NCBI GenBank assembly: GCA_963851265.1
Contig: CAWKNZ010000003.1
Span: 1-64,000 of the forward strand
Length of the DNA: 64,000 bases
Reading direction: 5' to 3'
DNA from: an uncultured Gemmatimonadales bacterium
Lineage (GTDB): Bacteria > Gemmatimonadota > Gemmatimonadetes > Gemmatimonadales > Gemmatimonadaceae
The position numbers and the translations under genes are program-made. Below, one piece after another: positions 3,016-23,782 of the stretch; the first letter of the stretch is position 1, and each line of letters begins with the position of its first letter. Under the pieces are notes generated by a model. It saw only the letters and a list, made by a program, of their open reading frames with translations. It searched no databases and was not told the origin of the DNA.

Positions 3016-3753
3016 GTGCACGGGGCCGGTTCGTTCACCGCACACGTGCCGACCCTGCCTCCGCTTCCCCCGCCCGCGTCGCAGCCGTTCGACGTCGACG
3101 TCGCGCTCGCCCGCGTGGGCGAGGCGATCACGCCGTACGCGCCCGCCGCGATGTTCGCACTTCGCGACGGAGACGACGCACACCCCGGATACGGCACACT
3201 CTTTCAGCAGCTGGTCGCGTGCATCCTGTCCATCCGGACGTACGACGAGGTCTCGCTACCCGTCGCGCGGCGCCTGTTCGCGCGTGCCGCGACGCCGGCC
3301 GATGTGGCGGCGCTGCCGGAGGGGGAGATCGCCGACCTGATCGCCGAGTCGTCGTTCGCCCCGGCCAAGGCTCGGCAGATCGTCGCGATCGCCGTGCGGA
3401 CGGTGAACGAGTTCGGCGGGACGCTCCCGGCCGACGACGTCGTCCTGCAGTCGTTCGCGGGCGTCGGCCCCAAGTGCGCACACCTCGCACTCGGGGTGGC
3501 GCTCGGGGCGCCGTACATCTCGGTGGACGTGCACGTCCACCGCGTAACCAATCGGTGGGGCTACGTCGCGGCCGCCACGCCCGAGAAGACGCTCGCCGCG
3601 CTCGAGCGGGTACTCCCCGCGCGGTGGTGGGTGGAGATCAACCGGCGCCTCGTCCCGTTCGGGAAACACGTGTGCACCGGCGTGCGGCCGCGGTGTTCGG
3701 GGTGTCCGGTGCTGGACATGTGCGCGAGGGTGGGCGTCACCTCGCACCGTTGA
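3016..3753 (+). CDS. nth: Endonuclease III (HhH-GPD glycosylase with 4Fe-4S cluster)
   Basis: HhH GVGPKCA, VDVHVHR, and C-terminal C-x6-C-x2-C-x5-C motif. Confidence 0.93.
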   Translation: MHGAGSFTAHVPTLPPLPPPASQPFDVDVALARVGEAITPYAPAAMFALRDGDDAHPGYGTLFQQLVACILSIRTYDEVSLPVARRLFARAATPADVAALPEGEIADLIAESSFAPAKARQIVAIAVRTVNEFGGTLPADDVVLQSFAGVGPKCAHLALGVALGAPYISVDVHVHRVTNRWGYVAAATPEKTLAALERVLPARWWVEINRRLVPFGKHVCTGVRPRCSGCPVLDMCARVGVTSHR

Positions 3754-3854: not shown

Positions 3855-4667
3855 TTACGCGGCGGCGAACTCTTCCGCCGCGCCCATGAAGTCGCGGAAC
3901 AGGTGCCGCGTGAACGGATCGTGCACCTCGAACACCTCGGGATGCCACTGCACCCCGACCATGAACGCGTCGCGGTCCGCCTCGACGGCCTCGACGACCC
4001 CGTCGGGCGCGTAGGCCGATACCACGAGCCCCTCGCCCAGACGCTTCACCGACTGGTGGTGCATGCTGTTGACCGGCACCGAAGGCCGCGGCATTGCGGC
4101 GTGCAGGCGCGTCGCAGCGGCGAGCTCGACCTCGTGCGCGTGGTGCGTGCGCGCGAAGCCCTTGGTCGGGTAGCAGTCGTGCATCAGCGTCTCGCCACCC
4201 TTCGGGTCGTGCCACTGCGTCGGGATGTCCTGCCAGAGCGAACCACCGCGGGCGACGTTGATGACCTGCGCGCCGCGGCAGAGGCCGAGCACCGGCATGC
4301 CGTCCTCCCACGCCCAGCGGACGAGCTGCAGTTCGACGGCATCGCGGGCCGGGTCGAGGCGGCCGGTCTCCGGAACGACGGCCTCGCCGTACGTTTCGGG
4401 ATCCATGTCGACGCCGCCCGGGATCAAGATCCCGTCGAGGTTCTCGTAGATCGAGCGGAGCGTGTCGACGTCGTCGTGGAACAGGGGGATCATCCACGGC
4501 GCGGCGCCAATCTCGACGACCGCGCGGAAGTAGCGCTGATTCATCACCCAGCTTTCCGGCAACCCCTCGGGGATGCCGGCTATTGCGTGCAACGTCTGCG
4601 TCGTGACGCCGATGATCGGGCGCGCCTTGGCGCGGCGCACGGGTCGGGTCGGAGCGAACAGAGCCAT
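3855..4667 (-). CDS. Gamma-glutamyl-gamma-aminobutyrate hydrolase family (peptidase C26, class I GATase)
   Basis: PGGVDMDP, LGLCRGAQ nucleophile, NSMHHQ, GVQWHPE. GAGGT RBS precedes ATG 4667. Confidence 0.93.
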   Translation of the reverse strand: MALFAPTRPVRRAKARPIIGVTTQTLHAIAGIPEGLPESWVMNQRYFRAVVEIGAAPWMIPLFHDDVDTLRSIYENLDGILIPGGVDMDPETYGEAVVPETGRLDPARDAVELQLVRWAWEDGMPVLGLCRGAQVINVARGGSLWQDIPTQWHDPKGGETLMHDCYPTKGFARTHHAHEVELAAATRLHAAMPRPSVPVNSMHHQSVKRLGEGLVVSAYAPDGVVEAVEADRDAFMVGVQWHPEVFEVHDPFTRHLFRDFMGAAEEFAAA

Positions 4668-4821
4668 CGTATGTACCTCACGGCGCAACCCCGCGCGCAT
4701 GGTCGGCGCGAAACGGCGCGGTCTGGAGTGTCGAGCGAAAACGGACAGAAGGACGCGGCGGCAGGCCGGGCCAACGACCCGCCTGCCGCCGCGCACCCGA
4801 AAGTTACGCGATTTCTGACGT

Positions 4822-4841
4822 TACTGACGTGTCAGTCAGTA
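4822..4841. promoter_or_regulatory. Palindromic operator candidate TACTGAC-N6-GTCAGTA
   Basis: Perfect 7-6-7 inverted repeat (nested ACTGAC-N2-GTCAGT) in an AT-rich patch upstream of the C26 gene. Confidence 0.5.
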
Positions 4842-4846
4842 CACCG

Positions 4847-6154
4847 TCACGGCAAACTCGGTGCCGGCCGCCCGATTTCCTGATCGCCAATGCGGATGCT
4901 GGGCGTGACGTCGCTGCGCCGGTCGAGATTCCCGCCCGTCGGCGCGCGTCGGTCGATCCGGCGGTCGCTGCCGCTCACCCGCCGGTCGACGCGCGCCTCA
5001 CGGCGCTCCTCGACCGGTGCCGTCGGGCGCAGTTCGGAGCGGGGGATCGGCGTCACGCCTTCGGCCGTCTCGGCAATGATCTGGTCGACCACCGCGTGCA
5101 GGCTGCCCGTGCGCTCGAACGTGGCGAGCTGCCGGTCGGCGCTCGAGCCCTCGTCGAGGATGCGGTACGCGTACTCGACTTCCTTCCGCGTGCCGAGCTC
5201 GTCGACCACGTCGCCCAGGAACCAGTCGATGAACTCGCGGATGAGTTCGGGGGCGGGCTTCTCCTCACGCTTGCCGAAGTCGATCATGTTGCCGCCGAGC
5301 CCGAAGCGCATCGCGCGCCACTTGTTCTCGTCGATGAGCCGCGACGAATAGTCCCGAAACGTCAGGTTGTCGCGGCGCATCTTCCAGAGCTTGAACACGA
5401 GGGCCTGGATGATCGCCGCGACGCAGACGGCCTCGTCGACGCGCGTGCACGCGTCGCACAGGCGGAACTCGAGCGTCGGATACTTGAAGTGCGGCCGCGC
5501 GTCCCACCAGATCTTCGACCCGTCGGGGATGGATCCCACCTCGATGAGCGCGTCGATGTACTCCTGGTATTCCGACCACCCCGAGAGCCGCGTCGGAATG
5601 CCGGTGCGCGGGAAGCCGCGGAAGACGGTCGATCGGTAGCTCTTGAGCCCGGTGTTTCGGCCGATCCAGAATGGCGAGCTGGTGGTGAGCGCGAGCAGGT
5701 GGGGAAGGAAGTAGCGGGCGACGTTGAGTGCGTCGATCGCGAACTCCTTGTCCTCGATCCCGACGTGCACGTGCATGCCGAAGATCAGCAGTCGTTGCGC
5801 GAGATCGCCCATGTCGCGCCGCACGCCCTCGTAGCGCTCGAGCTGGGTGATGTCCTGCTCCCACCACGTCGAGAACGGGTGGCTCCCGGCGGACGCGATC
5901 GTCAGCCCACCTTCCGCGACGAGTCCCGTCACCGCGCCGCGCAGGCGGACCAACTCCTCGCGCACCTCTGCCGGCGTGTTGCAGGGCTTCGTCCCGACCT
6001 CGACGATGCTCTGGTGCAATTCGGGCTTCATCTGCACGTCGCCGGGCAGTTCGTGCTCCATGATCCGCCCGATGTAGCTCTTGAGCGCGCGCGTGTTCGG
6101 GTCGACGATCTGGTACTCCTCTTCGACTCCGAGGGTCAGGGAGGGTGGCTTCAT
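4847..6154 (-). CDS. Carboxylate-amine ligase, YbdK/GCS2 family
   Basis: TLGVEEEYQIVD, GMHVHVG, SSPFW, IWWDARPH, TLEFRLCD motifs; extra Arg-rich C-terminal tail. Confidence 0.95.
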   Translation of the reverse strand: MKPPSLTLGVEEEYQIVDPNTRALKSYIGRIMEHELPGDVQMKPELHQSIVEVGTKPCNTPAEVREELVRLRGAVTGLVAEGGLTIASAGSHPFSTWWEQDITQLERYEGVRRDMGDLAQRLLIFGMHVHVGIEDKEFAIDALNVARYFLPHLLALTTSSPFWIGRNTGLKSYRSTVFRGFPRTGIPTRLSGWSEYQEYIDALIEVGSIPDGSKIWWDARPHFKYPTLEFRLCDACTRVDEAVCVAAIIQALVFKLWKMRRDNLTFRDYSSRLIDENKWRAMRFGLGGNMIDFGKREEKPAPELIREFIDWFLGDVVDELGTRKEVEYAYRILDEGSSADRQLATFERTGSLHAVVDQIIAETAEGVTPIPRSELRPTAPVEERREARVDRRVSGSDRRIDRRAPTGGNLDRRSDVTPSIRIGDQEIGRPAPSLP

Positions 6155-6236
6155 ACGCGGACCTCGGCGGGGGGGGAGGGCGAGGGCTGAACAGCGGTGT
6201 CCGGCAGGCTGCTGTTACGTAAACCGTGCCAGGAGT

Positions 6237-7664
6237 TCACCGCGGGAGTACCACGAAATTGGGGACCTGCGATCCACCGCCGGCCGTCACATTGAGGAGT
6301 GCGTCCGTGGACAGCCGCGTCAGCACCCCTTCCATGGCGACGCCGTCGGTGACGTACGGCGCCGTGTCGATGAGGCGGTCGAGCAGGTGCACCTCGCCGT
6401 CGACCACACTCGGGTACGCCTCGAACGGGATGGCGACGCGTTGCTGGACCACGTACGGCTCGGCCAGCGCGCGGGCGACGGCCCGCTCCCAGTCGCCCTG
6501 GTCGACGGTCCAGCCGAGGACGATGCCGGTGCCCCCGTATTCGTCGTTGGGTTTGAGAACGAAGCGCTCGCGGTTCGCGGTGAGGTGCGGCACGAGGTCG
6601 ACGGCCTGCCCGTCGTGCACGGTGCGGCGTTCCTCGACGACGCGCGTCCACGGAATCCCGTCGGCGATCGCGGCGCGCGCCGCGTCGTCGAAGAGGCCGG
6701 CGTTGCGTTCGTCCGAGAGCACCGCGAGCGACGCCTTCTTGTGCAGGATCTTGCCGTCGGGCGGGTTGACCATGCACACGGCACCGGCCTGCCACGCGCG
6801 CAGCACGTCGGCGTCGGCGCCTGCGCGCTCGACGAGTTCGCTCAGCAGCACGCGCTTGTAGATCACGTCCACCGGTGCGCCGCCGAGGCCCAGATCGCCG
6901 TCGCGGTACTCCGCCGCGCGCGGGTCGGCGATGACGCAGTCGACCCCCTGGGCGCGGAAGAACGCCTGGAACATGAGGAATTCCTGACGCGTGGGCACGT
7001 CGTCCCAGTCCAGGATGGCCACGCGCGGCGCGACGCCGCGGGTCGGGCGCCCCGCCCCATCGGCCCACCGCCGCCAGGCGCCGAGCACGGCTTCGACGAT
7101 GCCGTAGTGGGCGAAGATGGGAAGCGCGTGCCAGCGGCGGACGAACGCGCGCATCGCCGGCAGTTCGAGGAAGGTGTCGGTGAGCGTGTCGTTGAACCCC
7201 GCGCCCGCGGGCGTCTCGCCGTTGACCTCGGTGAGGGCGAAGGTACCGCCGTCGCCGGCGTCGTCGACGATGAACGCGTCGAGGCGTGCCGTGGGACTCG
7301 AGATCGCCGCGCGCGGGCCGGTGGTGAGGAGCGACTCCTCCCATTCGGCGAGGCGGAACTGCGCGCGCAGCGCCGGGTCGGCCATCGCGGCCCGGTGCGC
7401 GGTGTTGAACGCGTGCATGAGGCCCGCGATACGCCGGCCGAGCGCGGCGTACTGGGCCGGCGTGAAGAAGCGCGGGCGGACGACGGTGCAGAGGCGGCGC
7501 GTGCCGAAGATCAGCCCGCGGCGTCCGAGCGCCGTTTCGAGTGCCCCCTCGGTGTCGGCGGCGAGCTGCGCCCCCGCCGACCCCTCGAGCAGGGCGTGGT
7601 ACGCGCCGATGGCGTCGGCCGGGGCGGGCGTCGCGGGGGCGCGGCGCGGGGGCGCTCCGCTCAC
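6237..7664 (-). CDS. Circularly permuted ATP-grasp ligase (glutathionylspermidine synthase-like)
   Basis: RLD...EVNGETPAG near the N-terminus, VLKPNDEYGGTGIVLG, YVVQQRV, NVTAGGG near the C-terminus. Confidence 0.85.
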   Translation of the reverse strand: MSGAPPRRAPATPAPADAIGAYHALLEGSAGAQLAADTEGALETALGRRGLIFGTRRLCTVVRPRFFTPAQYAALGRRIAGLMHAFNTAHRAAMADPALRAQFRLAEWEESLLTTGPRAAISSPTARLDAFIVDDAGDGGTFALTEVNGETPAGAGFNDTLTDTFLELPAMRAFVRRWHALPIFAHYGIVEAVLGAWRRWADGAGRPTRGVAPRVAILDWDDVPTRQEFLMFQAFFRAQGVDCVIADPRAAEYRDGDLGLGGAPVDVIYKRVLLSELVERAGADADVLRAWQAGAVCMVNPPDGKILHKKASLAVLSDERNAGLFDDAARAAIADGIPWTRVVEERRTVHDGQAVDLVPHLTANRERFVLKPNDEYGGTGIVLGWTVDQGDWERAVARALAEPYVVQQRVAIPFEAYPSVVDGEVHLLDRLIDTAPYVTDGVAMEGVLTRLSTDALLNVTAGGGSQVPNFVVLPR

Positions 7665-7674
7665 GGGGCGGTCC

Positions 7675-9078
7675 TCACGCCGGCGCGCCCCCGAAGAGCG
7701 ACGACCACGCCGGCTCGACCGCGCGGTGACCGCCGTCGCGCACGGCCTTGGCCATGCGCACCGCCATGTCGGCCATGTGCTCGACCACCCACTCGAAGTA
7801 CGTCGGGGTGAGCGAGTAGATGTCCATGTCGGGCGCGGGGTTCATGAAGTCGATGGCGTACGGAACGCCGCCGCGGATCGCGAACTCCATCGAGTTCATG
7901 TCGTAGCCTAACGCATGGCAGAGCGCGCGGGCGTCGCGCACGATCTTGGCGCCGAGCTGCGGGCTGAGGTGCGCGTGGTCGACGATGTACTTGCGCTGCT
8001 TGGGGTCGTACTTCATCGGGAGCACCTCGTCGCGGCCGATCACTAGGCAGCGCACGAAGTGCTCGAACTCGATGAACTCCTGCACGATCATGGTGAGGAG
8101 CCCCGAGGTGTTGTAATTGTGGAGCAGCTCCTGGGGCGTGCGGCAGACGTAGACCTCCTTCCAGCCGCCGCCGTGCGCGTCCTTGAGGATGCACGGCATG
8201 CCGATGTAGTCGATGATACCCTGCCAGTCGAGCGGGTACTCGAGGTTGCGGAGCGACTCGCTCGGGACGATGCCCGGCACGTACTCGCGGTTGGGCAGGA
8301 CCACCGTCTTGGGCGACGCGACGCCCAGCCGGTCGGCGAGCGACGCGCCGAAGAACTTGTCGTCGGCGCTCCACATGAAGGGGTTGTTGACCACCGCGGC
8401 GCCGCGCAGCGCGGCCTGCTTGAGGTACGTGCGGTAGGTGGGCACCTCGTGTGAGATGCGGTCGATGAGCAGGTCGTACGCGGGCGGGTCGTCGAAGCGG
8501 GGCGCGCCGATCTTCGCGTACTCCGCGACGACGCCGGCGTCGCGGCGCTCGACCGCCTTGAAGAACTCGGGCGGGAAGGACCACTCGCGTCCGACGAAGA
8601 GGCCGACGCGCGCGTCGCGCGTGGGCGTGTGGACGGCCGGCGCGGGGGCGCCGATCGGTGCGCTGACGCCACCGTCCTCGGTGACGAGGTTCTCGTCGGC
8701 GTCGGCGATCTCGACGGCGCTCGGCGCCTCGGGCGCCCGCATCTCGGGGATCCCCGCGGCCGTACCGCGCGCCGCCGACGCGCGCGCGCCCGGGTGCCCC
8801 GCTTCGGGCGCGGGCTCCGAGCCGGGCGCGTGGTCCGAGGTGCCCGGCGCGTACACGTCGGGCGCCTCGAAGTTGGGCGCGGGGCCGGTGCTCACCGCGC
8901 CCGCTGCCGCGTCGCTCGGCGCGCCGATGGGTGCGGCGATGGGCGTCCCGATCGGCTTCTCCCTGCCCGGCGCGTTCGGATCGCCCTCGGGGGTGAGCGG
9001 GCCGGTCGCGGCGGACGCGGCGGCGGACGACTTGGCGCCGACCTTCTTGATGCGAGGCTGCTTCTTCTTGTCGCTCAT
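7675..9078 (-). CDS. RimK/glutathione synthase-like ATP-grasp protein with a long Pro/Ala N-terminal extension
   Basis: DRISH, NNPF..ADDKF, ILKDAHGGGW, VQEFI, AIDFMNPAPD. Confidence 0.85.
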   Translation of the reverse strand: MSDKKKQPRIKKVGAKSSAAASAATGPLTPEGDPNAPGREKPIGTPIAAPIGAPSDAAAGAVSTGPAPNFEAPDVYAPGTSDHAPGSEPAPEAGHPGARASAARGTAAGIPEMRAPEAPSAVEIADADENLVTEDGGVSAPIGAPAPAVHTPTRDARVGLFVGREWSFPPEFFKAVERRDAGVVAEYAKIGAPRFDDPPAYDLLIDRISHEVPTYRTYLKQAALRGAAVVNNPFMWSADDKFFGASLADRLGVASPKTVVLPNREYVPGIVPSESLRNLEYPLDWQGIIDYIGMPCILKDAHGGGWKEVYVCRTPQELLHNYNTSGLLTMIVQEFIEFEHFVRCLVIGRDEVLPMKYDPKQRKYIVDHAHLSPQLGAKIVRDARALCHALGYDMNSMEFAIRGGVPYAIDFMNPAPDMDIYSLTPTYFEWVVEHMADMAVRMAKAVRDGGHRAVEPAWSSLFGGAPA

Positions 9079-9100
9079 CGGTCGAGAAGGGTGTGAGGGG

Positions 9101-9823
9101 TCAGTCGTGGCCGCCGACGTACATCCGGATCATGCGCTCCCACCACGGCCAGTCGTGGGCGAAGCCGCGCCACTCGCGGAGCGCGTTGCCGATGCCCTGC
9201 GACCAGAGGAGTCCGGAGAACGCGCGGTTGTTGTCGAGCGCGGGGTCGTCGAGGCCGATCGCCATGATGAGGTCCTGCCGGCGGTGGAGCGCGAGCTTGT
9301 CGCCGCTCATCGGCGCCGCGGCCAGCGCCATCGGGTTGACCTGGTCGACCGTGCCGTCGCGCTGGCCGTGCGTGAGTCGCAGGATGTCGTAGCTGCCGCT
9401 CATCCCCACGAGGCGGCGCACGACGTCGGGGTGGCGCATCGCGAACACGGCCGCGTCGTACGCGCCGAGCGAGGCGCCCGTGGCGATGATGAAGTCGTTG
9501 GGGTTACGCGAGTAGCTGAACGGAACGACTTCGTGGTAGACGTAGTTGTCGTACTGCAAGTGGCGCCACGCGCGCGCGCCGACGTGGAGGTCGCGGCGGT
9601 ACCAGCTCTCGTCGTGCACGTGGTGCAGGCAGTACATCTGCAGCCAGCCGTTTCGCAGATGGTCGCCCAGGACGTACTGCATGCGCCGGTCGGGCCACTC
9701 GTAGTACGTGCCCATGGACGTCGGGAAGACGAAGAGCTTCGCCCCGGCGTGGCCGTAGACGAGCAGGTCCATCGGCTTCCCGTCGAGGGCGGGGCTGTGC
9801 CAGCGGTGGTGTTCGGTGTGCAT
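9101..9823 (-). CDS. Esterase family alpha/beta hydrolase
   Basis: YGHAG...FPTSMG, GASLG nucleophile elbow, HDWPWW. ATG overlaps the upstream TGA (TGATG). Confidence 0.88.
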   Translation of the reverse strand: MHTEHHRWHSPALDGKPMDLLVYGHAGAKLFVFPTSMGTYYEWPDRRMQYVLGDHLRNGWLQMYCLHHVHDESWYRRDLHVGARAWRHLQYDNYVYHEVVPFSYSRNPNDFIIATGASLGAYDAAVFAMRHPDVVRRLVGMSGSYDILRLTHGQRDGTVDQVNPMALAAAPMSGDKLALHRRQDLIMAIGLDDPALDNNRAFSGLLWSQGIGNALREWRGFAHDWPWWERMIRMYVGGHD

Positions 9824-10644
9824 CAGGCTTTCAGCAGGAAGGGGATGACCTTCTTGAGTCGGCGACCCCACGCGGCCTCGTTGTGCGCGCCGCCCGCGGC
9901 GATCACCGTCCTGAGCGTGTCGCCCTCGTGGTAGCCCTTTCGCTGCAGCAGGTCGCGCAGCAGGCGGACGTTGTGCACCGTGCGCACGCCCTCGGCCGTG
10001 CCGACGTCGAGCCAGATGCGCCCGCGCGGCGCGTCGGCGGCTTCGACGAAGGGGAGGATGGCGCGGTTGGCGAACCAGAGCGCCGGACTCATGATGCCGC
10101 ACATGCGGAAGGCGTGCGGCGCGCGAAAGAACGCGTACGCGCTCACCAGGCCGCCCATCGACGAGCCGAGCACGCCGGTGGCCGCGGGCTCCGGGCGCGT
10201 GCGGAACTGCGCGTCGATCACCGGCTTGAGGGTGTGCAGCAGGAAGTCGACGTACCGGTCCGCGGTGCCGCCGCCGCCGACGCGCTCGTCGAAGAACGGC
10301 GAGTACTCGTCGATGCGCGAGCCGCCGGTGTTGGCGACCCCGACGACGATGGCCTCGTAGCCGAGGCGCGCGGCCGTTTGCATGGCGAGGTCGACGCGCC
10401 ACGCCCCGGAGAAGCTGAGCGCGGGGTCGAACAGGTTCTGCCCGTCGTGCATGTAGATCACGGGGTAGCGCGCGTCGGGCGCGCCGAGCCCGTAGGACGG
10501 GGGCAGGTAGACGTAGACGTCGCGGTGGTTGTGCAGCTCGGGGGAGTGCACGTCGCGCAGCACGGCCATCGCGCCCGGCGCGGCCGGGCGCCGCGCGAAG
10601 CGACTGCGCCGGCGCTGGGCCGCCGGCTCCAGCGCGTCGGTCAC
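9823..10644 (-). CDS. Putative esterase (alpha/beta hydrolase, IroE/Fes-like)
   Basis: VYLPPSY, YPVIYMHDGQNLFD, GSSMGG, HNEAAW. GTG start overlaps the upstream stop (GTGA). Confidence 0.88.
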   Translation of the reverse strand: MTDALEPAAQRRRSRFARRPAAPGAMAVLRDVHSPELHNHRDVYVYLPPSYGLGAPDARYPVIYMHDGQNLFDPALSFSGAWRVDLAMQTAARLGYEAIVVGVANTGGSRIDEYSPFFDERVGGGGTADRYVDFLLHTLKPVIDAQFRTRPEPAATGVLGSSMGGLVSAYAFFRAPHAFRMCGIMSPALWFANRAILPFVEAADAPRGRIWLDVGTAEGVRTVHNVRLLRDLLQRKGYHEGDTLRTVIAAGGAHNEAAWGRRLKKVIPFLLKA

Positions 10645-11858
10645 GCGGCGTAGAGCCGCAAGTCGGTGCCGACCGCGTCGGCCATGTCGAACAGCGTTTG
10701 CTTGTCGGGGTGGCGTACGGTGACGTAGCCGTCGGAGATGAGCGTCAGCACCCAGTCGCGGCGCGACGCCCCGACGGGGAGCAGGTCGACGCCGACGACC
10801 GCCGAGCCGAACCGGCGGTACAGGTCGTCGAGCCCGTCGATGCGCACGATGCGCCCCTGCCCCTCCGCGCGCTTGAAAATGTTGGCCACGTAGTACGCGC
10901 GCGACGGCACCTGGGAGAACGTCCCCTTCAACTCGGCCTCGGCGTAGCCGCCGAAGAGGTCGATGTCGGAGTTGTAGTTCATCAGGTCGACCGTGCGCGC
11001 GCCCGCCGGCCGCGCCGCGATCTCGCCGAAGACCACCTCGCCGTCGCTCTTGCGATACCACTCCATGTGCGTGAAGCCGGTCTGGAACCCCAGCGCCGCG
11101 AGCACGTCGTGGCCCTGCTGCACGCCGTCCTTCACCCACTCCGTGTCGATGTCGCGGAGCGAGAGCGTCTGCGGCGAGATCCACTCGAGCGTGCGCGCGA
11201 CGAGCGGGCGCGGGCGGTAGTAGCCGACGTGCTCGTAGAGGACGCTGCCGCCGGCGCAGACCGTGTCGTACGTGAACTCCTCGGCGTCGATGAACTCCTC
11301 GACGTTCACGGTCGCGACGTGGCCGAGGCGCTTGAGCGCGGCCTCGAGCTCGGCGGCGTCGTCGACGCGGAACGTGTCCATCGAGCCCGCGCCGTCGATG
11401 GGCTTGATGATCGCGGGGTAGCCGACGGCCTCGACGCCCTCGCGCACCTCGGCGGCGGTGGTCGCGCGGCGGTGGTAGGGCACGCGGACGCCGGCCGCGG
11501 CGACGGCCTGCTTCATCAGGTCCTTGTCGCGGAACAGGCGCGCCTGCTCGACGCCCATACCGGGAACGCCTAACGCCTCGCGCAGGCGCGCGGCGAGGAT
11601 CACGCCGGGCTCCCAGAGGCAGACCACGCGGTCGAAGGTGACGCGGCCCGCGGAGGCGCGCTGCACGGCGGCGACCGCGCCGGCCTCGTCGCGGATGTCG
11701 GCCTGGACGTAGCCCGAGAGGTGGTGGCGGGTCATCTCGGGGAGCTGCGACTCGGCGACGTCGCTCAGGCCGAAGACGCGCGCGCCCTGCCGCGCGAGGC
11801 CGCGCACGAAGAGCGGCATCTCGTCGGGGTACCCGGGGGCGATGAAGAGGACGTTCAT
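10641..11858 (-). CDS. ATP-grasp ligase (L-amino-acid ligase-like)
   Basis: FRDKDLMK, IIKPIDGAGS, VEEFI, FTHMEWY, GEIAARP. Confidence 0.92.
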   Translation of the reverse strand: MNVLFIAPGYPDEMPLFVRGLARQGARVFGLSDVAESQLPEMTRHHLSGYVQADIRDEAGAVAAVQRASAGRVTFDRVVCLWEPGVILAARLREALGVPGMGVEQARLFRDKDLMKQAVAAAGVRVPYHRRATTAAEVREGVEAVGYPAIIKPIDGAGSMDTFRVDDAAELEAALKRLGHVATVNVEEFIDAEEFTYDTVCAGGSVLYEHVGYYRPRPLVARTLEWISPQTLSLRDIDTEWVKDGVQQGHDVLAALGFQTGFTHMEWYRKSDGEVVFGEIAARPAGARTVDLMNYNSDIDLFGGYAEAELKGTFSQVPSRAYYVANIFKRAEGQGRIVRIDGLDDLYRRFGSAVVGVDLLPVGASRRDWVLTLISDGYVTVRHPDKQTLFDMADAVGTDLRLYAA

Positions 11859-11882
11859 GGGCGTGTGGTAGGGGGGCACGCG

Positions 11883-13109
11883 TTAGGCGAGTTCGACCCG
11901 CACGGTCGAGACGATCTCCGAGAGCGCCCGCTCGACCGCCGCGGTCTCGGGGTGGCGCACGAGGATCCAGCCGTCGCCCTCGTAGCTCGGGCGCGCGCCG
12001 AAGCCGGCGTGGGGCAGCTGCACGTCGGTGACGAGCGCGCGCGTCTGCTCCGAGAGGCGGTCGAGGCCGTGCGTGGCGCGGATCACGCCGCCCGCGCGGC
12101 CCTGCGCGCGGAGGAACGCCACGCCCGCGGCGTACTTGCGCGCGGGCGGGTCGAACGCGCCCTCGACCATGAGCCGCGCCCACGAGCGCACGAAGTCGGT
12201 GTCGGTGCTGCGCGAGACGAGCGTGGTGATCTGTGCGCCGGGCGGGCGGGCGGCGACCTCGCTCACCGCGACCGAGCCGTCGCGCCGGCGGAACCACTCC
12301 ATGTGCGTGAGGCCGGTGGTCATGCCTAACGCCGCGAGCGCCTCGTCGCCGACCCGCCTCGCGTCGTCGTACCGCGGGTCGTCGGCCTCGCGCGGCAGCA
12401 CGACGCACCACTGGATCCAGGGGTTCCGCACCGCGTCGAGCGGCGTCGGGTGGTAGCGCGTGAGCGAATGCCACACCGGGCGCCCGCCGACCGAGACGGT
12501 CTCGAGGGAGTGCTCCTCGCCGACGATGAACTCCTCGAGCAGCACGGGGTCGCCCGGCGCCGGGGGCGCGGCGGCCAGCGCGTCGGCCAGCTCGCCGTCG
12601 CTCGTCGCGCGAAAGGTCGCGACCGAGCCGGCGCCCGCGGGCGGCTTCACCACGACGGGGTAGCCGACGTGCGCGGCGAACGCCGCCGCCTCGGCCGGCG
12701 TCTCCGCGAGCGCGTGCCGCGCGCACGGCACCCCGGCGGCGCGCAGGATGTCCTTCATCCGCGCCTTGTCGCGAAAGTTGAGCGCGGTCTCGACGGGCAG
12801 GCCGTCGATGCCGAGCCGCGCGCGCAGCTGGGCGAGCGGGACCTGGAGCTGCTCGTACGCGCCGAACAGGCGATCCGGCGCGCCGATGCGGGCGCCGATC
12901 GCCTCGACCGCTCCGGCGAGCTGCTCGAGGTCGAGCACGTCGTCGACGCGCCAGTGCTGAGCCACGGCGCCGCGCACGTCGTCCGGCGCGTTGTCCAGCG
13001 GGTCCTGCGAGACCACGCCGAGCCGCACGTCGGGGAGCGAGGCGGTGGCCGTCACCATGCGGGCGGCACTGGGCGTGAGGTACGGCGCGGCGAAGATGAC
13101 CGTTGGCAT
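11883..13109 (-). CDS. ATP-grasp ligase (L-amino-acid ligase-like), paralogue of the downstream gene
   Basis: FRDKARMK, VVKPPAGAGS, LEEFI, THMEWF, EVAARPPG. Confidence 0.92.
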   Translation of the reverse strand: MPTVIFAAPYLTPSAARMVTATASLPDVRLGVVSQDPLDNAPDDVRGAVAQHWRVDDVLDLEQLAGAVEAIGARIGAPDRLFGAYEQLQVPLAQLRARLGIDGLPVETALNFRDKARMKDILRAAGVPCARHALAETPAEAAAFAAHVGYPVVVKPPAGAGSVATFRATSDGELADALAAAPPAPGDPVLLEEFIVGEEHSLETVSVGGRPVWHSLTRYHPTPLDAVRNPWIQWCVVLPREADDPRYDDARRVGDEALAALGMTTGLTHMEWFRRRDGSVAVSEVAARPPGAQITTLVSRSTDTDFVRSWARLMVEGAFDPPARKYAAGVAFLRAQGRAGGVIRATHGLDRLSEQTRALVTDVQLPHAGFGARPSYEGDGWILVRHPETAAVERALSEIVSTVRVELA

Positions 13110-13217
13110 GGCGCGTTCCTGACCGGGCGGGACTGGCGGACCTGGCGAATGTAGCGCGCTCGGGCTTCGCCTCCCCGCGCGCCGTAGCAGGTCCGTTCCG
13201 CACCGGACGTGCCGCGG

Positions 13218-15437
13218 CTACATGAGGTCGTCCAGTTCGCGCCAGCCGCGGGCGGAGAATCCGAGTCGCCACGCCACCGGCGAGAGCTGCTGTCGGGCCG
13301 CGTCGGGGAGCGTGCGCCCGATGCGGTGGATCGCCGTCTGCGCGTCGAACGGCGTGCCCGCCCCGGCCGCCTCCGCGAGATCGGCCAACCCCAGCACGCG
13401 CGCGACGGCCGCCCCAGCCGCGGCGGCGATCGGACCGCGCAGTCCGAGCGCAGACTCGTCGCCGGCCGACTCACGCAGCACCTCACCGAGCGCCTCGATC
13501 GCGCGCACGAGCGCAGCGCTCGCGAGGTCGCGCAGCTTGGCCTCGCCCGCGGCGAGTCGTTCGCGGTCCTCGGCGTCGAGCAGCCGCTGCACCACGGCGC
13601 GACGGAGTGCGAGCTCCACGCACGAGCGCGCCGGTTCGGGCAGATCGGTCAGCTTCAGTGCCGCACCGAGCGCATCGGCGAACGCGGGACGCGCCCCGGG
13701 AGCGCCGGGCACCGGGCGGACGAGGATCGTCACCCCCCGGGGGTCCACGTCCGACAGGCGGAACGCCCGGCCGGCGACCACGCCGGGGCTCGGCACGTCG
13801 ACGATCACCGCGTACGTGCTCCCCGTGCAGAGTCGGCGGTCGTGGACGTGAACGACCGGACCGCCCGGCGCGCCGGCGTCCACGTCCGCGTGCCACGTGG
13901 GTGGCGTGCTCTCCCGCGCTCCGACGGCTGCGACCGCCGCGACCCCCGCGGCCACGCGCACGGCGAGCGGCGGGTCGGCGGGCGCCAGGCGCTGGAGGAT
14001 CATGCGCGCCGAGCCAGCCGAGGCGTGCGTCCCGACGGCGACGCTGAGCGCACGACGCAGCCGGTCCAACACGGCGTCGCGGCGCGGGCCGGCCAGCATG
14101 GCCGCCCGCGCCGCTCGGGCGAGTATCGTGAGCGCGGCCGGGTCCGAGAGGTCGTCCGCGCCGAGGCCGTCGGCGTCGAACATCGCGAGCGTCTCGCGCG
14201 ACATCTCGAGGAGTTCACGCGCCCACACCGGGTCGGACGTGCTCGGAACGCATCCGCCGGCGAGTTCGCAGCTGTCCCCCGGCCCGCGGGCGTCGGGTAC
14301 GACGCTGTTGTAGGCATCGCGAACCGCATCCGCCCCGCCCCGCACGTTCGCGAACAGGATGGCCCCGTCGGCCGCGAAACGTTCGTCGAGTGCGCCGCGC
14401 AACTCCTGCAGGGCGGCGACGAGCGGCGCGCGCCACCCCTGCTCGGTCGACGGATCGCGCCGGCAACCGCACTCGGTCTGCCACCGGCCGAGCGCGTGCG
14501 GACAACTCCACGCCGTACGGTCGTGCACGCCGATCTCGTCCGTGGCCGGGTCGGCGGCGAGAACGGCGGCGTAGTTGGTGATCGCCGTCGGCGCACGCCG
14601 GAGTCCGTCGGCGCCGGTGCTCGGGTACTCGAGCGCGTCGATGGCGGCAGCGAGCGCCATGTCGCCGAAGCGGTGGTGCATGCCGAAGGTCTCGGCGGTG
14701 GCGGCGATGGCGACGAGCGGGTTCGCCGCGTCATGTTCGTCGAGTCGCGCCCGCATCCGGTCTGCCCATCCGCAGCCGTCGCGCAGCAGCGCGCCGAACG
14801 CCACGTCATGCGCGATGTCGGCGTCGTAGGTGCAGAGCGCGATCTCGCGCCCGGCGTCGCTGCGGTAGAGACCCGGGCGGCCCGCAGGCGGGAGGCCGTC
14901 GAGCTGGTGCGGCGCGAGGAGCGTGAACCGCACACCCTCCTGCGCGAGGACGTCGAGCGTCTCGTCGTCGACGGCCGTCTCGGGGAGCCACATCCCTTCG
15001 GCGGGGCGGCCGAAGTGGCGCGCGAAGTCGGCGAGTCCCCATCGGACTTCGGTGACCTTGTCGCGCCGCGTGAGGAGCGGCAGGACGATGTGATGGTAGG
15101 GGTGCGCGATGGCGTTGCCGCGCCCGAGGCGCTGTTCGCTCGCCCGGTCGGCCGCGAGAATCGCGTCGTAGGTGGCGGGCGCCGACCGCGCGAGCCACGC
15201 GAGCAGCGTCGGGGCGACGTCGAAGCTCGTGCGCGCGAGCGTGTCGACGATGCGGCGCACGCGGCCGTCCGCGTCGGTCACGCGCGCGGCGACGAGGGCG
15301 CGATAGCACGTGCGCTCGGCGCGCGCGTACACGTCGTGGTCCGGGGCCGCGTCGGCTTCGCGCGGCAGGTGGCCGAGCCAGGGGTCTACCCGCGGCGGCT
15401 GGTGCAGGTGCAGATGGAAGATGGCGGCCGGGGGCAT
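13218..15437 (-). CDS. GH57-family / DUF3536 protein, probably catalytically degenerate
   Basis: HLHQPPR.DPW, HIVLPL, GMWLPETAVD, WSCPH...RW..CGC, WRAPL. The usual TDGET reads ATAET. Confidence 0.82.
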   Translation of the reverse strand: MPPAAIFHLHLHQPPRVDPWLGHLPREADAAPDHDVYARAERTCYRALVAARVTDADGRVRRIVDTLARTSFDVAPTLLAWLARSAPATYDAILAADRASEQRLGRGNAIAHPYHHIVLPLLTRRDKVTEVRWGLADFARHFGRPAEGMWLPETAVDDETLDVLAQEGVRFTLLAPHQLDGLPPAGRPGLYRSDAGREIALCTYDADIAHDVAFGALLRDGCGWADRMRARLDEHDAANPLVAIAATAETFGMHHRFGDMALAAAIDALEYPSTGADGLRRAPTAITNYAAVLAADPATDEIGVHDRTAWSCPHALGRWQTECGCRRDPSTEQGWRAPLVAALQELRGALDERFAADGAILFANVRGGADAVRDAYNSVVPDARGPGDSCELAGGCVPSTSDPVWARELLEMSRETLAMFDADGLGADDLSDPAALTILARAARAAMLAGPRRDAVLDRLRRALSVAVGTHASAGSARMILQRLAPADPPLAVRVAAGVAAVAAVGARESTPPTWHADVDAGAPGGPVVHVHDRRLCTGSTYAVIVDVPSPGVVAGRAFRLSDVDPRGVTILVRPVPGAPGARPAFADALGAALKLTDLPEPARSCVELALRRAVVQRLLDAEDRERLAAGEAKLRDLASAALVRAIEALGEVLRESAGDESALGLRGPIAAAAGAAVARVLGLADLAEAAGAGTPFDAQTAIHRIGRTLPDAARQQLSPVAWRLGFSARGWRELDDLM

Positions 15438-15539: not shown

Positions 15540-16124
15540 TCAGTCGAGGGCGGCGACGGTCTGCGTAGTCGACGGCGTACCGGCCGAGGCGCCGGCGACT
15601 GTCGCGCCCGCGGAGGCGATCGCGTCCGGGGCGGGAAGCGTCACGCCGGCCTTCGCCGCTCGAAGTGCGAGCACGTCGGGGTCGCGGAGCGACCGGAGCA
15701 TCGCGTCGGCCGCGCGATTCTGGAGATACCGGCCGCGCTCCCACCCTTCGACGACGCCTTTCGGAACGCCGTAGAGCAGCTCGCCGAGCTGACTGGTCGT
15801 GATGCCGAGTTCCTCCCGCAGGCGGCGGATGTCGCGCGGGGTGAGCAGGCCGTTCGCGTCGCGCATGCGCGTGACCGCGTCGCGTTCGGCGGATTCGCGC
15901 TGTTCGACCGTGCGCTGCTCGTCTCCACAGACGGCGCACCGGTACATCTCGCGCTCGACTTCGGCCTGCATTCCACTCAGGCGCACCGTGATGCGCTCCG
16001 CCGCGCGCTGATAGCGCCCGCCGCAGAATCGGTGCAGGTGGCCGTCGAGGAGGTGGTCGCCGGTCACGCGGCGCGCGCGGTGGTTGTGGTGCGGCGAGAC
16101 ATGGGCACGAAGATAATCGCCCAC
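15540..16124 (-). CDS. MqsA-like zinc-ribbon + XRE HTH protein (start uncertain)
   Basis: HRFC...CAVCG metal motif, LLTPRDIRRLREELG, WERG HTH features. Confidence 0.8.
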   Translation of the reverse strand: MGDYLRAHVSPHHNHRARRVTGDHLLDGHLHRFCGGRYQRAAERITVRLSGMQAEVEREMYRCAVCGDEQRTVEQRESAERDAVTRMRDANGLLTPRDIRRLREELGITTSQLGELLYGVPKGVVEGWERGRYLQNRAADAMLRSLRDPDVLALRAAKAGVTLPAPDAIASAGATVAGASAGTPSTTQTVAALD

Positions 16125-16208: not shown

Positions 16209-16574
16209 TTACGCCGCGCGCGGCAGCGCGCGGGCGCGCGCGACGACGGTGGCCAACGCGCGTACGACGCGCTCGTCGCCCTCGCGGAGCAGGGCGGCGA
16301 GGATGTGCTTGCACACCTGATCGCGCCACACGTGATCACCGCAATCGCAGCGCGGGTGCGCCGCCGTCACGAGGTCGACCCAGTGGTCGCCCGCGCCGCC
16401 GCTGACGCGGTAACGCCCTTCGGCGACGCGTTCGGCCGCGAGCTCGAGCCCGCGCTCGAGCCGATCGAGGTCGACCGCGTCGGCCCCGTCGATCTGCACG
16501 AGCGGCGCCGTCCGGGCGCGTCCGATGCTCGCCACCTGTCCTGCGCCACTCGTCGTCCGTCCGTCCGTCTGCAT
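16209..16574 (-). CDS. Small SWIM zinc-finger protein
   Basis: CDCGD-x7-CKH SWIM motif preceded by YRVSGG..HWVDL. Confidence 0.8.
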   Translation of the reverse strand: MQTDGRTTSGAGQVASIGRARTAPLVQIDGADAVDLDRLERGLELAAERVAEGRYRVSGGAGDHWVDLVTAAHPRCDCGDHVWRDQVCKHILAALLREGDERVVRALATVVARARALPRAA

Positions 16575-17546: not shown

Positions 17547-17764
17547 CGGGCGCGTCACGCACCTGAGGTCGGTCGTGCGCGACGAGCGCGCAAACAACCG
17601 CGTTGTGCAATTCTGGACGCGTCGAAGGCGCGCCACAGGCGCGGCGGCTGCGTGGTGCGTGCTCGACAGTGCACATTCTGCACGATGACGGGTAGCTTGG
17701 ACGTGCCAATCCAGTGCGGCGGCTCAGCCGTCGCTGCTTCGTCATTCCCTGCCCCTGCCTCTTC

Positions 17765-20029
<2,265 letters not shown>

Positions 20030-22384: not shown

Positions 22385-23782
22385 TCAGTACCGCGCCAGG
22401 TACCGCCGCAACTCCCACTCGGTGACCTGCGTGCTGTACTCCCGCCACTCCGCGCGCTTCGCCGCGAGGTAGTGCTGCGTCACGTGCGGGCCCAACGCCG
22501 CGCGCACGACCTCGTCGCGTTCCAGCTCGTCGCACGCCTCGCCGAGGTCGTGCGGCAGGTCGTCGATGCGCAGCCGGCGCCGCTCACGCCAGCTCATCTC
22601 GGCCACCTCCTGCGCCACCGGCTCGCGCCACTCGGCGTTCGTGGCCACGCCGTCCAGTCCCGCGGCGATCATCACGGCGAGTGCGAGGTACGGGTTGGCC
22701 GCCGGGTCGGGCGTGCGCACCTCGAGCCGTGTGGCCGCGCCGCGGCGCTCGGGCACGCGCACGAGCGGTGTCCGACTCCTCAGACTCCACGCCACGTGCA
22801 CCGGCGCCTCGAAGCCGGGGACGAGGCGCTTGTACGAGTTGACGAGCGGGTTCGTGACCGCACACATCCCGCGGGCGTGGCGGAGGAGGCCGCCGACGTA
22901 GTGGAGCGCCGTGCGCGACAGCCCCCACTCGGCGCCGGGGTCGGCGAACGCGTTCTCGCCGACCCCGCCGTCGCGGTCGAGCGCGACGAGCGCCTGGTGC
23001 GTGTGGAGCCCGCTGCCGTTCTGCCCGAACACCGGCTTGGGCATGAACGAGGCGACGAGGCCGAACCGTCGGGCGACGTGCTTCACGACGAACCGGAGCG
23101 TGATCACGTCGTCGGCGGCCGCGAGGGCATCGGCGTCACCGAGGTCGATCTCGTGCTGGCCGTGCGCTCCCTCGTGGTGCGCGCCCACCACCGGGACGCC
23201 GAGCCGCTCGAGCAGCTCGACCATCGCGCGGCGGGCCTCCTCGCCGTGATCGACCGGCGCGAGATCGAAGTAGCCGCCGACGTCGTGCGTCGCGGTGCTC
23301 GCAGCGCCGTCGGGCCCGGCAGGAAACAGGAAGAACTCGACCTCGGCGTTGGCGCGCACCGCGTAGCCGCGCTCGGCGGCCACGGCGAGCTGACGGCGGA
23401 GCACGGCGCGCGGGTCGCCGGCGAACGCCGTGCCGTCGGTGGTGGTGACGTCACAGATCACGCGGGCGACGCGCGCGTCGTCGGGCGGCGCTCCGCCAAA
23501 AGGAAGGACGCGGTACGTGGACAGGTCGGGGCGGAGGAGCATGTCGCTCTCCTCCGCGCGCGCGAAGCCCTCGATCGCGGCGCCGTCGAACAGGACCTCG
23601 CCCGCGAGCGCTTCGCCGAAGCGGGACGCGGGGACCTCGACGTTCTTGTTGACGCCGAGGATGTCGGTGAACTGGAGGCGGAGAAAGCGTACGCCCTCCG
23701 CGCGCATGCGCTCGAGCAACTCGGCGGCGTCGGCCGGCTGCGGGGGCGTCGACGGGGCGTCCGGGGGCGTCATGCGTGGCAT
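22385..23782 (-). CDS. glnA: Glutamine synthetase type I-alpha-like protein
   Basis: LQFTDILG, ESDM, HHE..GQHEI, MPKP..NGSG.H, NSYKRLVPGFEAP, DPAANPYLA. Confidence 0.9.
   Translation of the reverse strand: MPRMTPPDAPSTPPQPADAAELLERMRAEGVRFLRLQFTDILGVNKNVEVPASRFGEALAGEVLFDGAAIEGFARAEESDMLLRPDLSTYRVLPFGGAPPDDARVARVICDVTTTDGTAFAGDPRAVLRRQLAVAAERGYAVRANAEVEFFLFPAGPDGAASTATHDVGGYFDLAPVDHGEEARRAMVELLERLGVPVVGAHHEGAHGQHEIDLGDADALAAADDVITLRFVVKHVARRFGLVASFMPKPVFGQNGSGLHTHQALVALDRDGGVGENAFADPGAEWGLSRTALHYVGGLLRHARGMCAVTNPLVNSYKRLVPGFEAPVHVAWSLRSRTPLVRVPERRGAATRLEVRTPDPAANPYLALAVMIAAGLDGVATNAEWREPVAQEVAEMSWRERRRLRIDDLPHDLGEACDELERDEVVRAALGPHVTQHYLAAKRAEWREYSTQVTEWELRRYLARY

Follow-up and report, generated by a model that had tools for sequence, protein, structure and literature searches.

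A row of nine co-oriented genes in an uncultured Gemmatimonadales bacterium (assembly GCA_963851265.1, contig CAWKNZ010000003.1, positions 1 to 64,000 of the forward strand, these 64,000 nucleotides being referred to below as the window) is a compact, single-locus version of a conserved system of amide-forming ligases and hydrolases that accompanies alpha-glucan synthesis. The cluster, at positions 3855-15437, consists of a widespread core (an esterase, a RimK-like ATP-grasp ligase, a circularly permuted ATP-grasp protein, a YbdK-type ligase and a peptidase C26 gamma-glutamyl hydrolase) and an optional pair of ATP-grasp proteins resembling L-amino-acid ligases, headed here by a protein of the GH57 family. 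The system, of five to eight enzymes, is present in a quarter of the Gemmatimonadota sampled (51 of 201 genomes), is represented by relatives in no fewer than two further phyla, and was found only alongside a glucan synthase of either route (GlgA or GlgE). The link to alpha-glucan is real and stronger than is visible from the window alone, and this distribution suggests an as yet unrecognised chemistry, taking place on glycogen or beside it, in common soil bacteria. As to the nature of this chemistry, we favour, at a probability of roughly 0.45, a short glutamate-containing or peptidyl amide unit, built by the ligases, that would be reversibly attached through ester bonds to glycogen or maltooligosaccharides by esterases resembling carbohydrate esterase family 1 (CE1).

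Association with alpha-glucan genes

Co-occurrence was assessed in the sample of 201 genomes of the phylum, 125 of which encode GlgA and 26 GlgE. One or the other of these synthases is encoded in all 51 core-bearing genomes, while the core is present in none of the 61 genomes with neither (Fisher p 6e-10), and the association is also seen within two families (p 9e-6 and 0.002). The seven core-bearing genomes without GlgA, representing seven genera, all encode GlgE, versus 8 of the 69 other GlgA-less genomes; one of these seven is an unpublished genome (G011), without which the count is 6 of 6 (p 1.5e-5). When a size-matched subset is considered, in a count that also partly rests on G011, the core is found in 9 of the 15 genomes with a glucan synthase versus 0 of 7 without (p 0.017). 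A control storage gene, cphA, is present in 47 of the 140 genomes with a glucan synthase versus 12 of the 61 without.

The linkage is also physical. In many relatives, the ligase genes follow a run of glycogen genes, encoding phosphorylase, GlgA, a GH57 branching enzyme, a GH57/DUF3536 protein and a GH57 glucanotransferase. Of 80 metagenome loci carrying ATP-grasp 1, the first gene of the ligase pair, 38 were shorter than 8 kb and were left out, and a glycogen gene is present at 27 of the remaining 42, in varying gene orders; in one set of loci the GlgA gene that adjoins the ligase genes encodes a protein with only ~37% identity to the GlgA linked elsewhere. Among the 44 genomes possessing both GlgA and the RimK-like gene, which served as the core marker, 19 have the two within 30 kb, versus ~2% expected by chance. 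A connection to alpha-glucan, raised in a preliminary description made from the letters of the window alone, is supported. Neighbours of the GH13, GH77 or GlgA type are further present at 6 of 20 loci carrying esterase 2, one of the two esterases of the cluster, in the phylum of locus L016, a Bacteroidota record.

The genome from which the window comes presents a special case, as no GT5 GlgA was found in it, only a weak PF08323 match on a TIGR02149-type glycosyltransferase encoded beside glgC, and the same weak match recurs in three congeners. Along with GlgC and this glycosyltransferase, the host possesses a GlgE locus, situated away from the cluster, with genes for TreS, a maltokinase-like protein, GlgX, GlgB, MalQ, TreY and phosphorylase. 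The GH57 protein of the cluster is the sole one detected within the host genome, and its gene is the one remaining glucan gene at the cluster. A lineage that is devoid of GlgA while retaining the ligases and a GH57 predicted to be catalytically dead presents a natural experiment. In the same genome, glgC and the TIGR02149 glycosyltransferase gene are within ~5 kb of iadA, cphB and cphA (L264, G000:C7:264335-273999), carbon- and nitrogen-storage genes thus adjoining each other, and a second cphA is present on contig C9.

The leading GH57 protein

The first gene of the row (13218..15437, minus strand) encodes a 739-amino-acid protein recognised by Pfam as GH57 plus DUF3536. Its structural model (predicted local distance difference test score, pLDDT, 84) has the catalytic barrel fold of the family, the top structural matches all being GH57, and the Glu nucleophile of conserved sequence region 3 (E153) is invariant. 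In region 4, T247 occupies the place of the acid/base Asp, as judged from a profile alignment in which it falls on D214 of the Thermococcus 4-alpha-glucanotransferase (1K1W), the residue named as the acid/base in PMC5347038. The respective alignment column contains, in 77 rows with duplicates included, Asp in 66, Glu in one, and Thr, Asn or Val in 10. These 10 rows derive from six genomes; Thr or Asn is found in the four that belong to the host genus, and Val in the remaining two. The preliminary description had a GH57-like gene heading the cluster, and such a gene is indeed present, though not as an active glucan enzyme, as the protein is predicted to be dead.

Four of the sequences without the acid/base Asp were placed in a tree, in which they form one clade (support 100/99). 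Its sister is an Asp-bearing copy from genome G593 that also heads a row of ligase genes, in a genome with no GlgA match, while in genome G585 the gene order is GlgA, GH57 (with Val) and ligases. This series reads as a stepwise loss of a glycogen operon, with this one gene left. Of 92 near-invariant positions, the proteins of the host genus have kept 68 and lost 24, including the last conserved region. The ORF (open reading frame) is intact, and the ratio of nonsynonymous to synonymous substitution rates (dN/dS) among three species, by a simple counting method, is 0.26-0.30 at dS ~0.7, the highest or near-highest of the cluster genes tested, the others ranging from 0.07 to 0.37. A decaying pseudogene was considered and rejected, based on the intact ORF and dN/dS below 0.35. 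With the acid/base Asp lost but purifying selection still acting, the protein is maintained and is a predicted inactive pseudoenzyme, presumably a remnant of the ancestral glycogen operon that is kept for a non-catalytic role. Within residues 310-325, two Cys come after a Trp-Ser-Cys-x-His motif (C312, H314, C323, C325), an arrangement conserved in both active and dead copies and possibly a metal site.

A conserved core and an optional ligase pair

Conservation of the cluster was surveyed at the best 80 of 486 loci with the RimK-like gene, many of them incomplete. The permuted ATP-grasp gene is present at 75 of these, esterase 2 at 74, esterase 1 at 62, the YbdK/GCS2 ligase gene at 60 and the C26 gene at 49, an arrangement that is not due to chance, while ATP-grasp 1 is present at only 12 and GH57 at only 9. 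The nearest named relative is a Gemmatirosa metagenome-assembled genome (MAG; locus L001), with a RimK-like domain 97% identical and the same gene order. In the phylum sample the ligase pair is present in 22 of the 201 genomes, 15 of which also have the core, and is absent from 36 of the 51 core-bearing genomes. The remaining seven pair-bearing genomes, all of one family, fall under the threshold for the core marker; in all three of those that were fetched, the pair is adjoined by a paralogous block consisting of a third ligase, an S51-like hydrolase, an esterase of greater length, another ligase with 28% identity to the RimK-like one, and a relative of esterase 2. As the pair is only found with the core or with a paralogous core, it looks like an add-on to the core. 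Thus, with respect to the preliminary description, co-conservation holds for the core and not for the nine genes as one fixed unit. The longer esterase of the paralogous block has weak N-terminal matches to glucan-binding families, all under cut-off.

Relatives of esterase 2 are present in 27 of 151 genomes in the phylum of locus L059 (a Ktedonobacteraceae record) and in 65 of 201 genomes in the phylum of L016, and the RimK-like gene is also present at 18 of 44 loci, 40 of them fetched from these two phyla, with 4 others included in the count. Among plasmid records, no match to the RimK-like gene was found, while esterase 2 matched 15 and ATP-grasp 1 matched three, all distant.

Some variations on the cluster were observed. 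One is a second, distant GCS2-like protein of ~490 amino acids, encoded after the core at six loci (for example, L035:18035-19516 and L075:14382-15857). Another is the replacement of C26 by a different class-I amidotransferase in the phylum of L016 (L168, L172, L173, L170), where an unannotated protein of ~393 amino acids is also often encoded after the core. A third is an arginine deiminase gene adjoining the ligase pair at three loci of the GlgA-flanking type (L216, L226, L236), which could hint at arginine, citrulline or ornithine as a substrate.

The nine genes and their surroundings

All nine ORFs are on the minus strand, in the order GH57, ATP-grasp 1, ATP-grasp 2, esterase 1, esterase 2, RimK-like, permuted ATP-grasp, YbdK/GCS2 and C26, precisely as previously described. 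The intergenic gaps, in this order, are 108, 3, -4, -1, 22, 10, 82 and ~180 bases, the spacing being tight in the middle of the cluster and looser at both ends. Several overlapping junctions had been noted from the sequence; one is firm, the TGATG at 9823 joining the two esterase genes, while the overlap between ATP-grasp 2 and esterase 1 is only valid if esterase 1 starts at the GTG at 10644 and not at the ATG at 10569. The GC content is flat over the window and the gene order is the same in congeners, and a horizontally acquired island was rejected on these grounds.

The family labels given to the genes earlier were strongly supported in profile searches for the GCS2/YbdK ligase (PF04107), C26, esterase 1, ATP-grasps 1 and 2 and GH57 plus DUF3536, while the scores of the RimK-like and the permuted ATP-grasp proteins are weak. 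When aligned with 61-152 orthologues per gene, the copies in the window retain nearly all conserved positions, including the catalytic candidates of the esterases and C26 and the Lys and Glu residues of the ATP-grasps, and the five ligases and three hydrolases all keep their conserved motifs; the roles of these residues, whether catalytic, ATP-binding or metal-binding, are presumed from what is known of the families. ATP-grasp 1 (11883..13109, 408 amino acids) has conserved residues K115, K155, E192, H269, E271, E284 and R288, and both its nearest solved sequences and its folds are RizA (4WD3), 3VOT and BacD, the three-domain ATP-grasp fold being nearest RizA/BacD with the binding residues present. 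ATP-grasp 2 (10641..11879, with an ATG start at 11858 favoured by orthologues) is its paralogue (~37% identical). The two leading ligases, formerly labelled simply as ATP-grasp, are thus more precisely placed nearest to L-amino-acid ligases. Esterase 1 (9823..10644, start at 10644 or 10569; PF00756) has the conserved candidate residues S137, D188 and H229, numbered from 10569, and esterase 2 (9101..9823, 240 amino acids) has invariant S118, D193 and H223. Esterase 2 itself has no Pfam match at 1e-3; its homologues carry PF00756, and both proteins are Ser-Asp-His alpha/beta hydrolases of this type, as judged from the matches and the conserved residues. The nearest solved structures of esterase 2 are esterases, several named as feruloyl or CE1, with distant matches to antigen 85 acyltransferases (E 0.001-0.02).

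The RimK-like ATP-grasp (7675..9078) belongs to an unnamed family, matching PF08443 at 24.5 bits and TIGR00768 at 36 bits versus a cut-off of 143, so that the RimK label is weak; D410 and N413 stand at the positions of the Ddl Glu and Asn. Its low-complexity N-terminal extension of ~155 amino acids (8610-9078, minus strand) is present in only 6 of 119 orthologues, all from close relatives. The circularly permuted ATP-grasp (6237..7664) resembles PF14403 (26 bits versus a cut-off of 32, E 5e-6, with the match confined to the C-terminal part), and a sequence search of the PDB with it returned no match. The YbdK/GCS2 carboxylate-amine ligase (4847..6154) is a member of the YbdK family by NF010039 (500 bits versus 371) and TIGR02050 (278 versus 176). 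Its Arg-rich tail (window 4850-5050, minus strand), of ~69 amino acids with five (D/E)RR repeats, recurs in L001 and L127 and, in part, in L128, and we take it to be reminiscent of Arg-rich segments that bind cyclic di-GMP. The C26 hydrolase (3855..4667, the likely ATG start being at 4667) matches PF07722 at 204 bits and keeps the Cys-His-Glu residues of peptidase C26 (C121, H233, E235, numbered from 4640).

Within the host genome, ATP-grasps 1 and 2 match each other, and otherwise a second relative is clear only in the case of esterase 1, while esterase 2 and C26 have faint ones. The lack of Alpha-E and transglutaminase genes had been noted before: Alpha-E was found in none of five genomes (the host and four relatives) by a search that was positive in 3 of 14 controls, and transglutaminase had no match among the nine cluster genes, a genome-wide search not having been made. 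No exporter is encoded among the nine genes. Matches in the ESM Atlas were confined to unnamed clusters of ATP-grasps and esterases. Among the best 150 representatives, no fusion between a ligase and a glucan-binding or an esterase domain was found, the long matches in this search being tandem ATP-grasps of other groups or apparent misjoined frames. No promoter or terminator was found by a scan that is uninformative at 73% GC, and no Rfam match was found in bases 1-30000.

As to the surroundings, directly upstream of the cluster are an MqsA-family antitoxin-like gene (15540-16124, minus strand; TIGR03830, just over cut-off), kept in two congeners and with no cognate toxin seen, and a small Cys/His-rich ORF (16209-16574, minus strand), kept in one congener. 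A type III glutamine synthetase gene (17714-20029, plus strand) is located 2.3 kb upstream of the cluster. Another ORF nearby (22385-23773, minus strand) was recognised by eye as glutamine-synthetase-like; neither of the two is a conserved neighbour outside the genus. An endonuclease III-like gene (3016-3753, plus strand) is convergent on the 3' end of the cluster in the host genus.

Proposed function and alternatives

Glycogen in bacteria is generally regarded as a simple polymer of glucose. We propose that in the organisms in question it, or the maltooligosaccharides, may carry a removable substituent. The amide ligases and the gamma-glutamyl hydrolase point to a peptide-like unit, the two serine esterases suggest an ester bond, as an all-amide product would not need esterases, and the genomic dependence on a glucan synthase suggests an alpha-glucan as the alcohol partner. 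We infer the substrates, the order of steps, the transacylation by the esterases and the attachment to glucan as follows. The YbdK/GCS2 ligase would make a gamma-glutamyl amide, whose extension or activation via acyl-phosphates would fall to the permuted ATP-grasp and the RimK-like ligase; where a lineage has the optional pair, this may add a dipeptide. The two esterases would load the unit onto sugar hydroxyls and strip it from them, and C26 would recover glutamate. The product would be cytoplasmic and would coat the carbon store with groups bearing nitrogen or charge. A broader version, in which bacteria of several phyla covalently and reversibly decorate glycogen, whether made via the GlgA or the GlgE route, with an ATP-built glutamyl peptide, so coupling carbon and nitrogen storage, and in which the dead GH57 has been kept in this lineage as an adaptor between the ligases and the granule, is less probable.

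Multiple observations weigh against attachment to glucan. The p values for co-occurrence overstate the association, as close kin were counted (seven genomes belong to genus g36) and most genomes are MAGs. In 25 of the 44 genomes with both genes, many of them fragmented, GlgA is not within 30 kb of the core marker; the ligase pair of genus g36 sits away from glycogen genes; no glycogen gene was recognised at any of 20 esterase-2 loci of the phylum of L059, by similarity to a reference set and with not every gene annotated; and no glycogen genes are present on two plasmids carrying a distant pair of ATP-grasp and esterase 2 or on two carrying esterase 2 alone. The linkage would also be explained by co-regulation with glycogen. 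No carbohydrate-binding domain was found by Pfam in the eight enzymes beyond GH57, GH57 itself may no longer bind glucan given the 24 near-invariant positions lost, and esterases of PF00756 are also active on thioesters and on esters that involve no sugar.

Some of the same observations fit a gamma-glutamyl oligopeptide or amide that would be free within the cell, serving as a nitrogen store or as a stress solute, co-regulated with glycogen, unattached to it, and recycled by the hydrolases. We consider this the foremost of the alternatives, if less probable than the favoured reading. Five amide-type ligases and C26 would suit a peptide cycle, linked ligases often act in succession (PMC4431377), and both the missing carbohydrate-binding domains and the separation of the core from glycogen genes in many genomes are as expected. 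However, a free peptide leaves the two CE1-like esterases unexplained, as well as the absence of the core from all genomes without a glucan synthase, although cyanophycin synthetase, the enzyme of a nitrogen store, is encoded in 12 of these 61. Even if the product were a free peptide, the cluster would define an orphan pathway for a peptide, in which several of the ligase families are unnamed.

The acceptor might instead be a small sugar, such as maltose, maltose-1-phosphate, trehalose or a short maltodextrin, resulting in a soluble aminoacyl-sugar and not a polymer. This is improbable: while the linkage and co-occurrence data fit it equally and the host possesses TreS and TreY, the commonest neighbours are the polymer enzymes (GlgA, the GH57 branching enzyme and phosphorylase) and not trehalose genes. 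Antigen 85 acyltransferases act on trehalose esters, and the distant matches of esterase 2 to them would agree with such an acceptor, but these matches are weak.

RimK modifies a protein, and by this precedent glutamyl or peptidyl tags could be placed by the ligases on proteins, such as the dead GH57 or the enzymes of glycogen metabolism, and taken off again by the hydrolases. Another precedent is presented by permuted ATP-grasps that, with Alpha-E and transglutaminase, are described as a peptide synthesis/modification system (PMC3597751), and a dead yet conserved GH57 could be the target. Alpha-E is, however, missing from the five genomes searched, the match to the RimK family model falls far short of its cut-off and GH57 is encoded at only 9 of the best 80 core loci, making protein tagging still less probable. 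Among the three products entertained in the preliminary description, glucan attachment ranks slightly ahead of the free oligopeptide, and protein tagging ranks last.

Finally, that rearrangement has merely brought together a core, a ligase pair and a GH57 gene with no functional connection, with GH57 a slowly decaying relic, is very improbable, as the separate blocks in g36 and the relatively high dN/dS and long stem branch of GH57 in the host genus are outweighed by the pair occurring with the core or, wherever fetched, a paralogous core, and by the intact GH57 ORF with its dN/dS of 0.26-0.30 at the dS given.

Comparison with known systems

No description of the cluster, its product or its link to glycogen was found in the largely open-access literature searched, the text of Iyer et al. 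(2009) being outside that scope, and the earlier view of a ligase/hydrolase set independent of non-ribosomal peptide synthetases (NRPS) and without a characterised product thus stands. The GH57 protein shares its family with PoGH57, a characterised DUF3536 member that is a 4-alpha-glucanotransferase from a GlgE-pathway locus (PMC11206854), and with GH57 'like' proteins without catalytic residues that are on record (PMC6037648). Unlike PoGH57, the cluster copy has lost the acid/base Asp and stands at the head of a row of ligase genes, and the available portions of these two sources name no such DUF3536 group. The L-amino-acid ligases, a family described in PMC6920838, namely RizA (4WD3), BL00235 (3VOT) and BacD/YwfE (3VMM), are the best matches of ATP-grasp 1 (E 1e-16; template modelling (TM) scores 0.73-0.78), but structural identity is only 16-21%, and the cluster has a fixed paralogous pair and no exporter.

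The PuuA/PuuD system likewise combines a gamma-glutamylating ligase with a C26 hydrolase; in the cluster, however, the ligase is of the YbdK type, C26 scores 113 bits with the PuuD model NF008471 versus a cut-off of 266, and oxidase and dehydrogenase genes are absent, and PuuA/PuuD-type catabolism was rejected for these scores and the missing oxidases. The cyanophycin system (CphA, CphB, IadA) likewise involves NRPS-independent amide synthesis by an ATP-grasp enzyme, along with a hydrolase resembling class-I amidotransferases, the counterpart of which is C26 in the cluster and S51 in the paralogous block. The cluster differs in having no Mur-ligase domain and in encoding five separate ligases and two esterases; with TIGR02068, none of the nine genes scores above 36 bits versus 850, so that no CphA is encoded there, and cphA is independent of glucan synthases, unlike the cluster core. 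True cphA, cphB and iadA are present elsewhere in the host genome, on other contigs, and the cluster is therefore not a stand-in for the cyanophycin pathway, which was rejected for this reason.

A close parallel is with the amidoligase neighbourhoods of circularly permuted ATP-grasps that were reportedly predicted by Iyer and colleagues in 2009. In these, a permuted ATP-grasp (PF14403) is likewise reported to be encoded beside a COOH-NH2 (GCS2) ligase, with further ATP-grasps, hydrolases and no known product. Compared to them, the cluster is without Alpha-E, has a PF14403 score under cut-off, and adds the pair resembling L-amino-acid ligases and the tie to alpha-glucan. It is, in conclusion, a real, conserved and uncharacterised variant of the predicted NRPS-independent amidoligase clusters.

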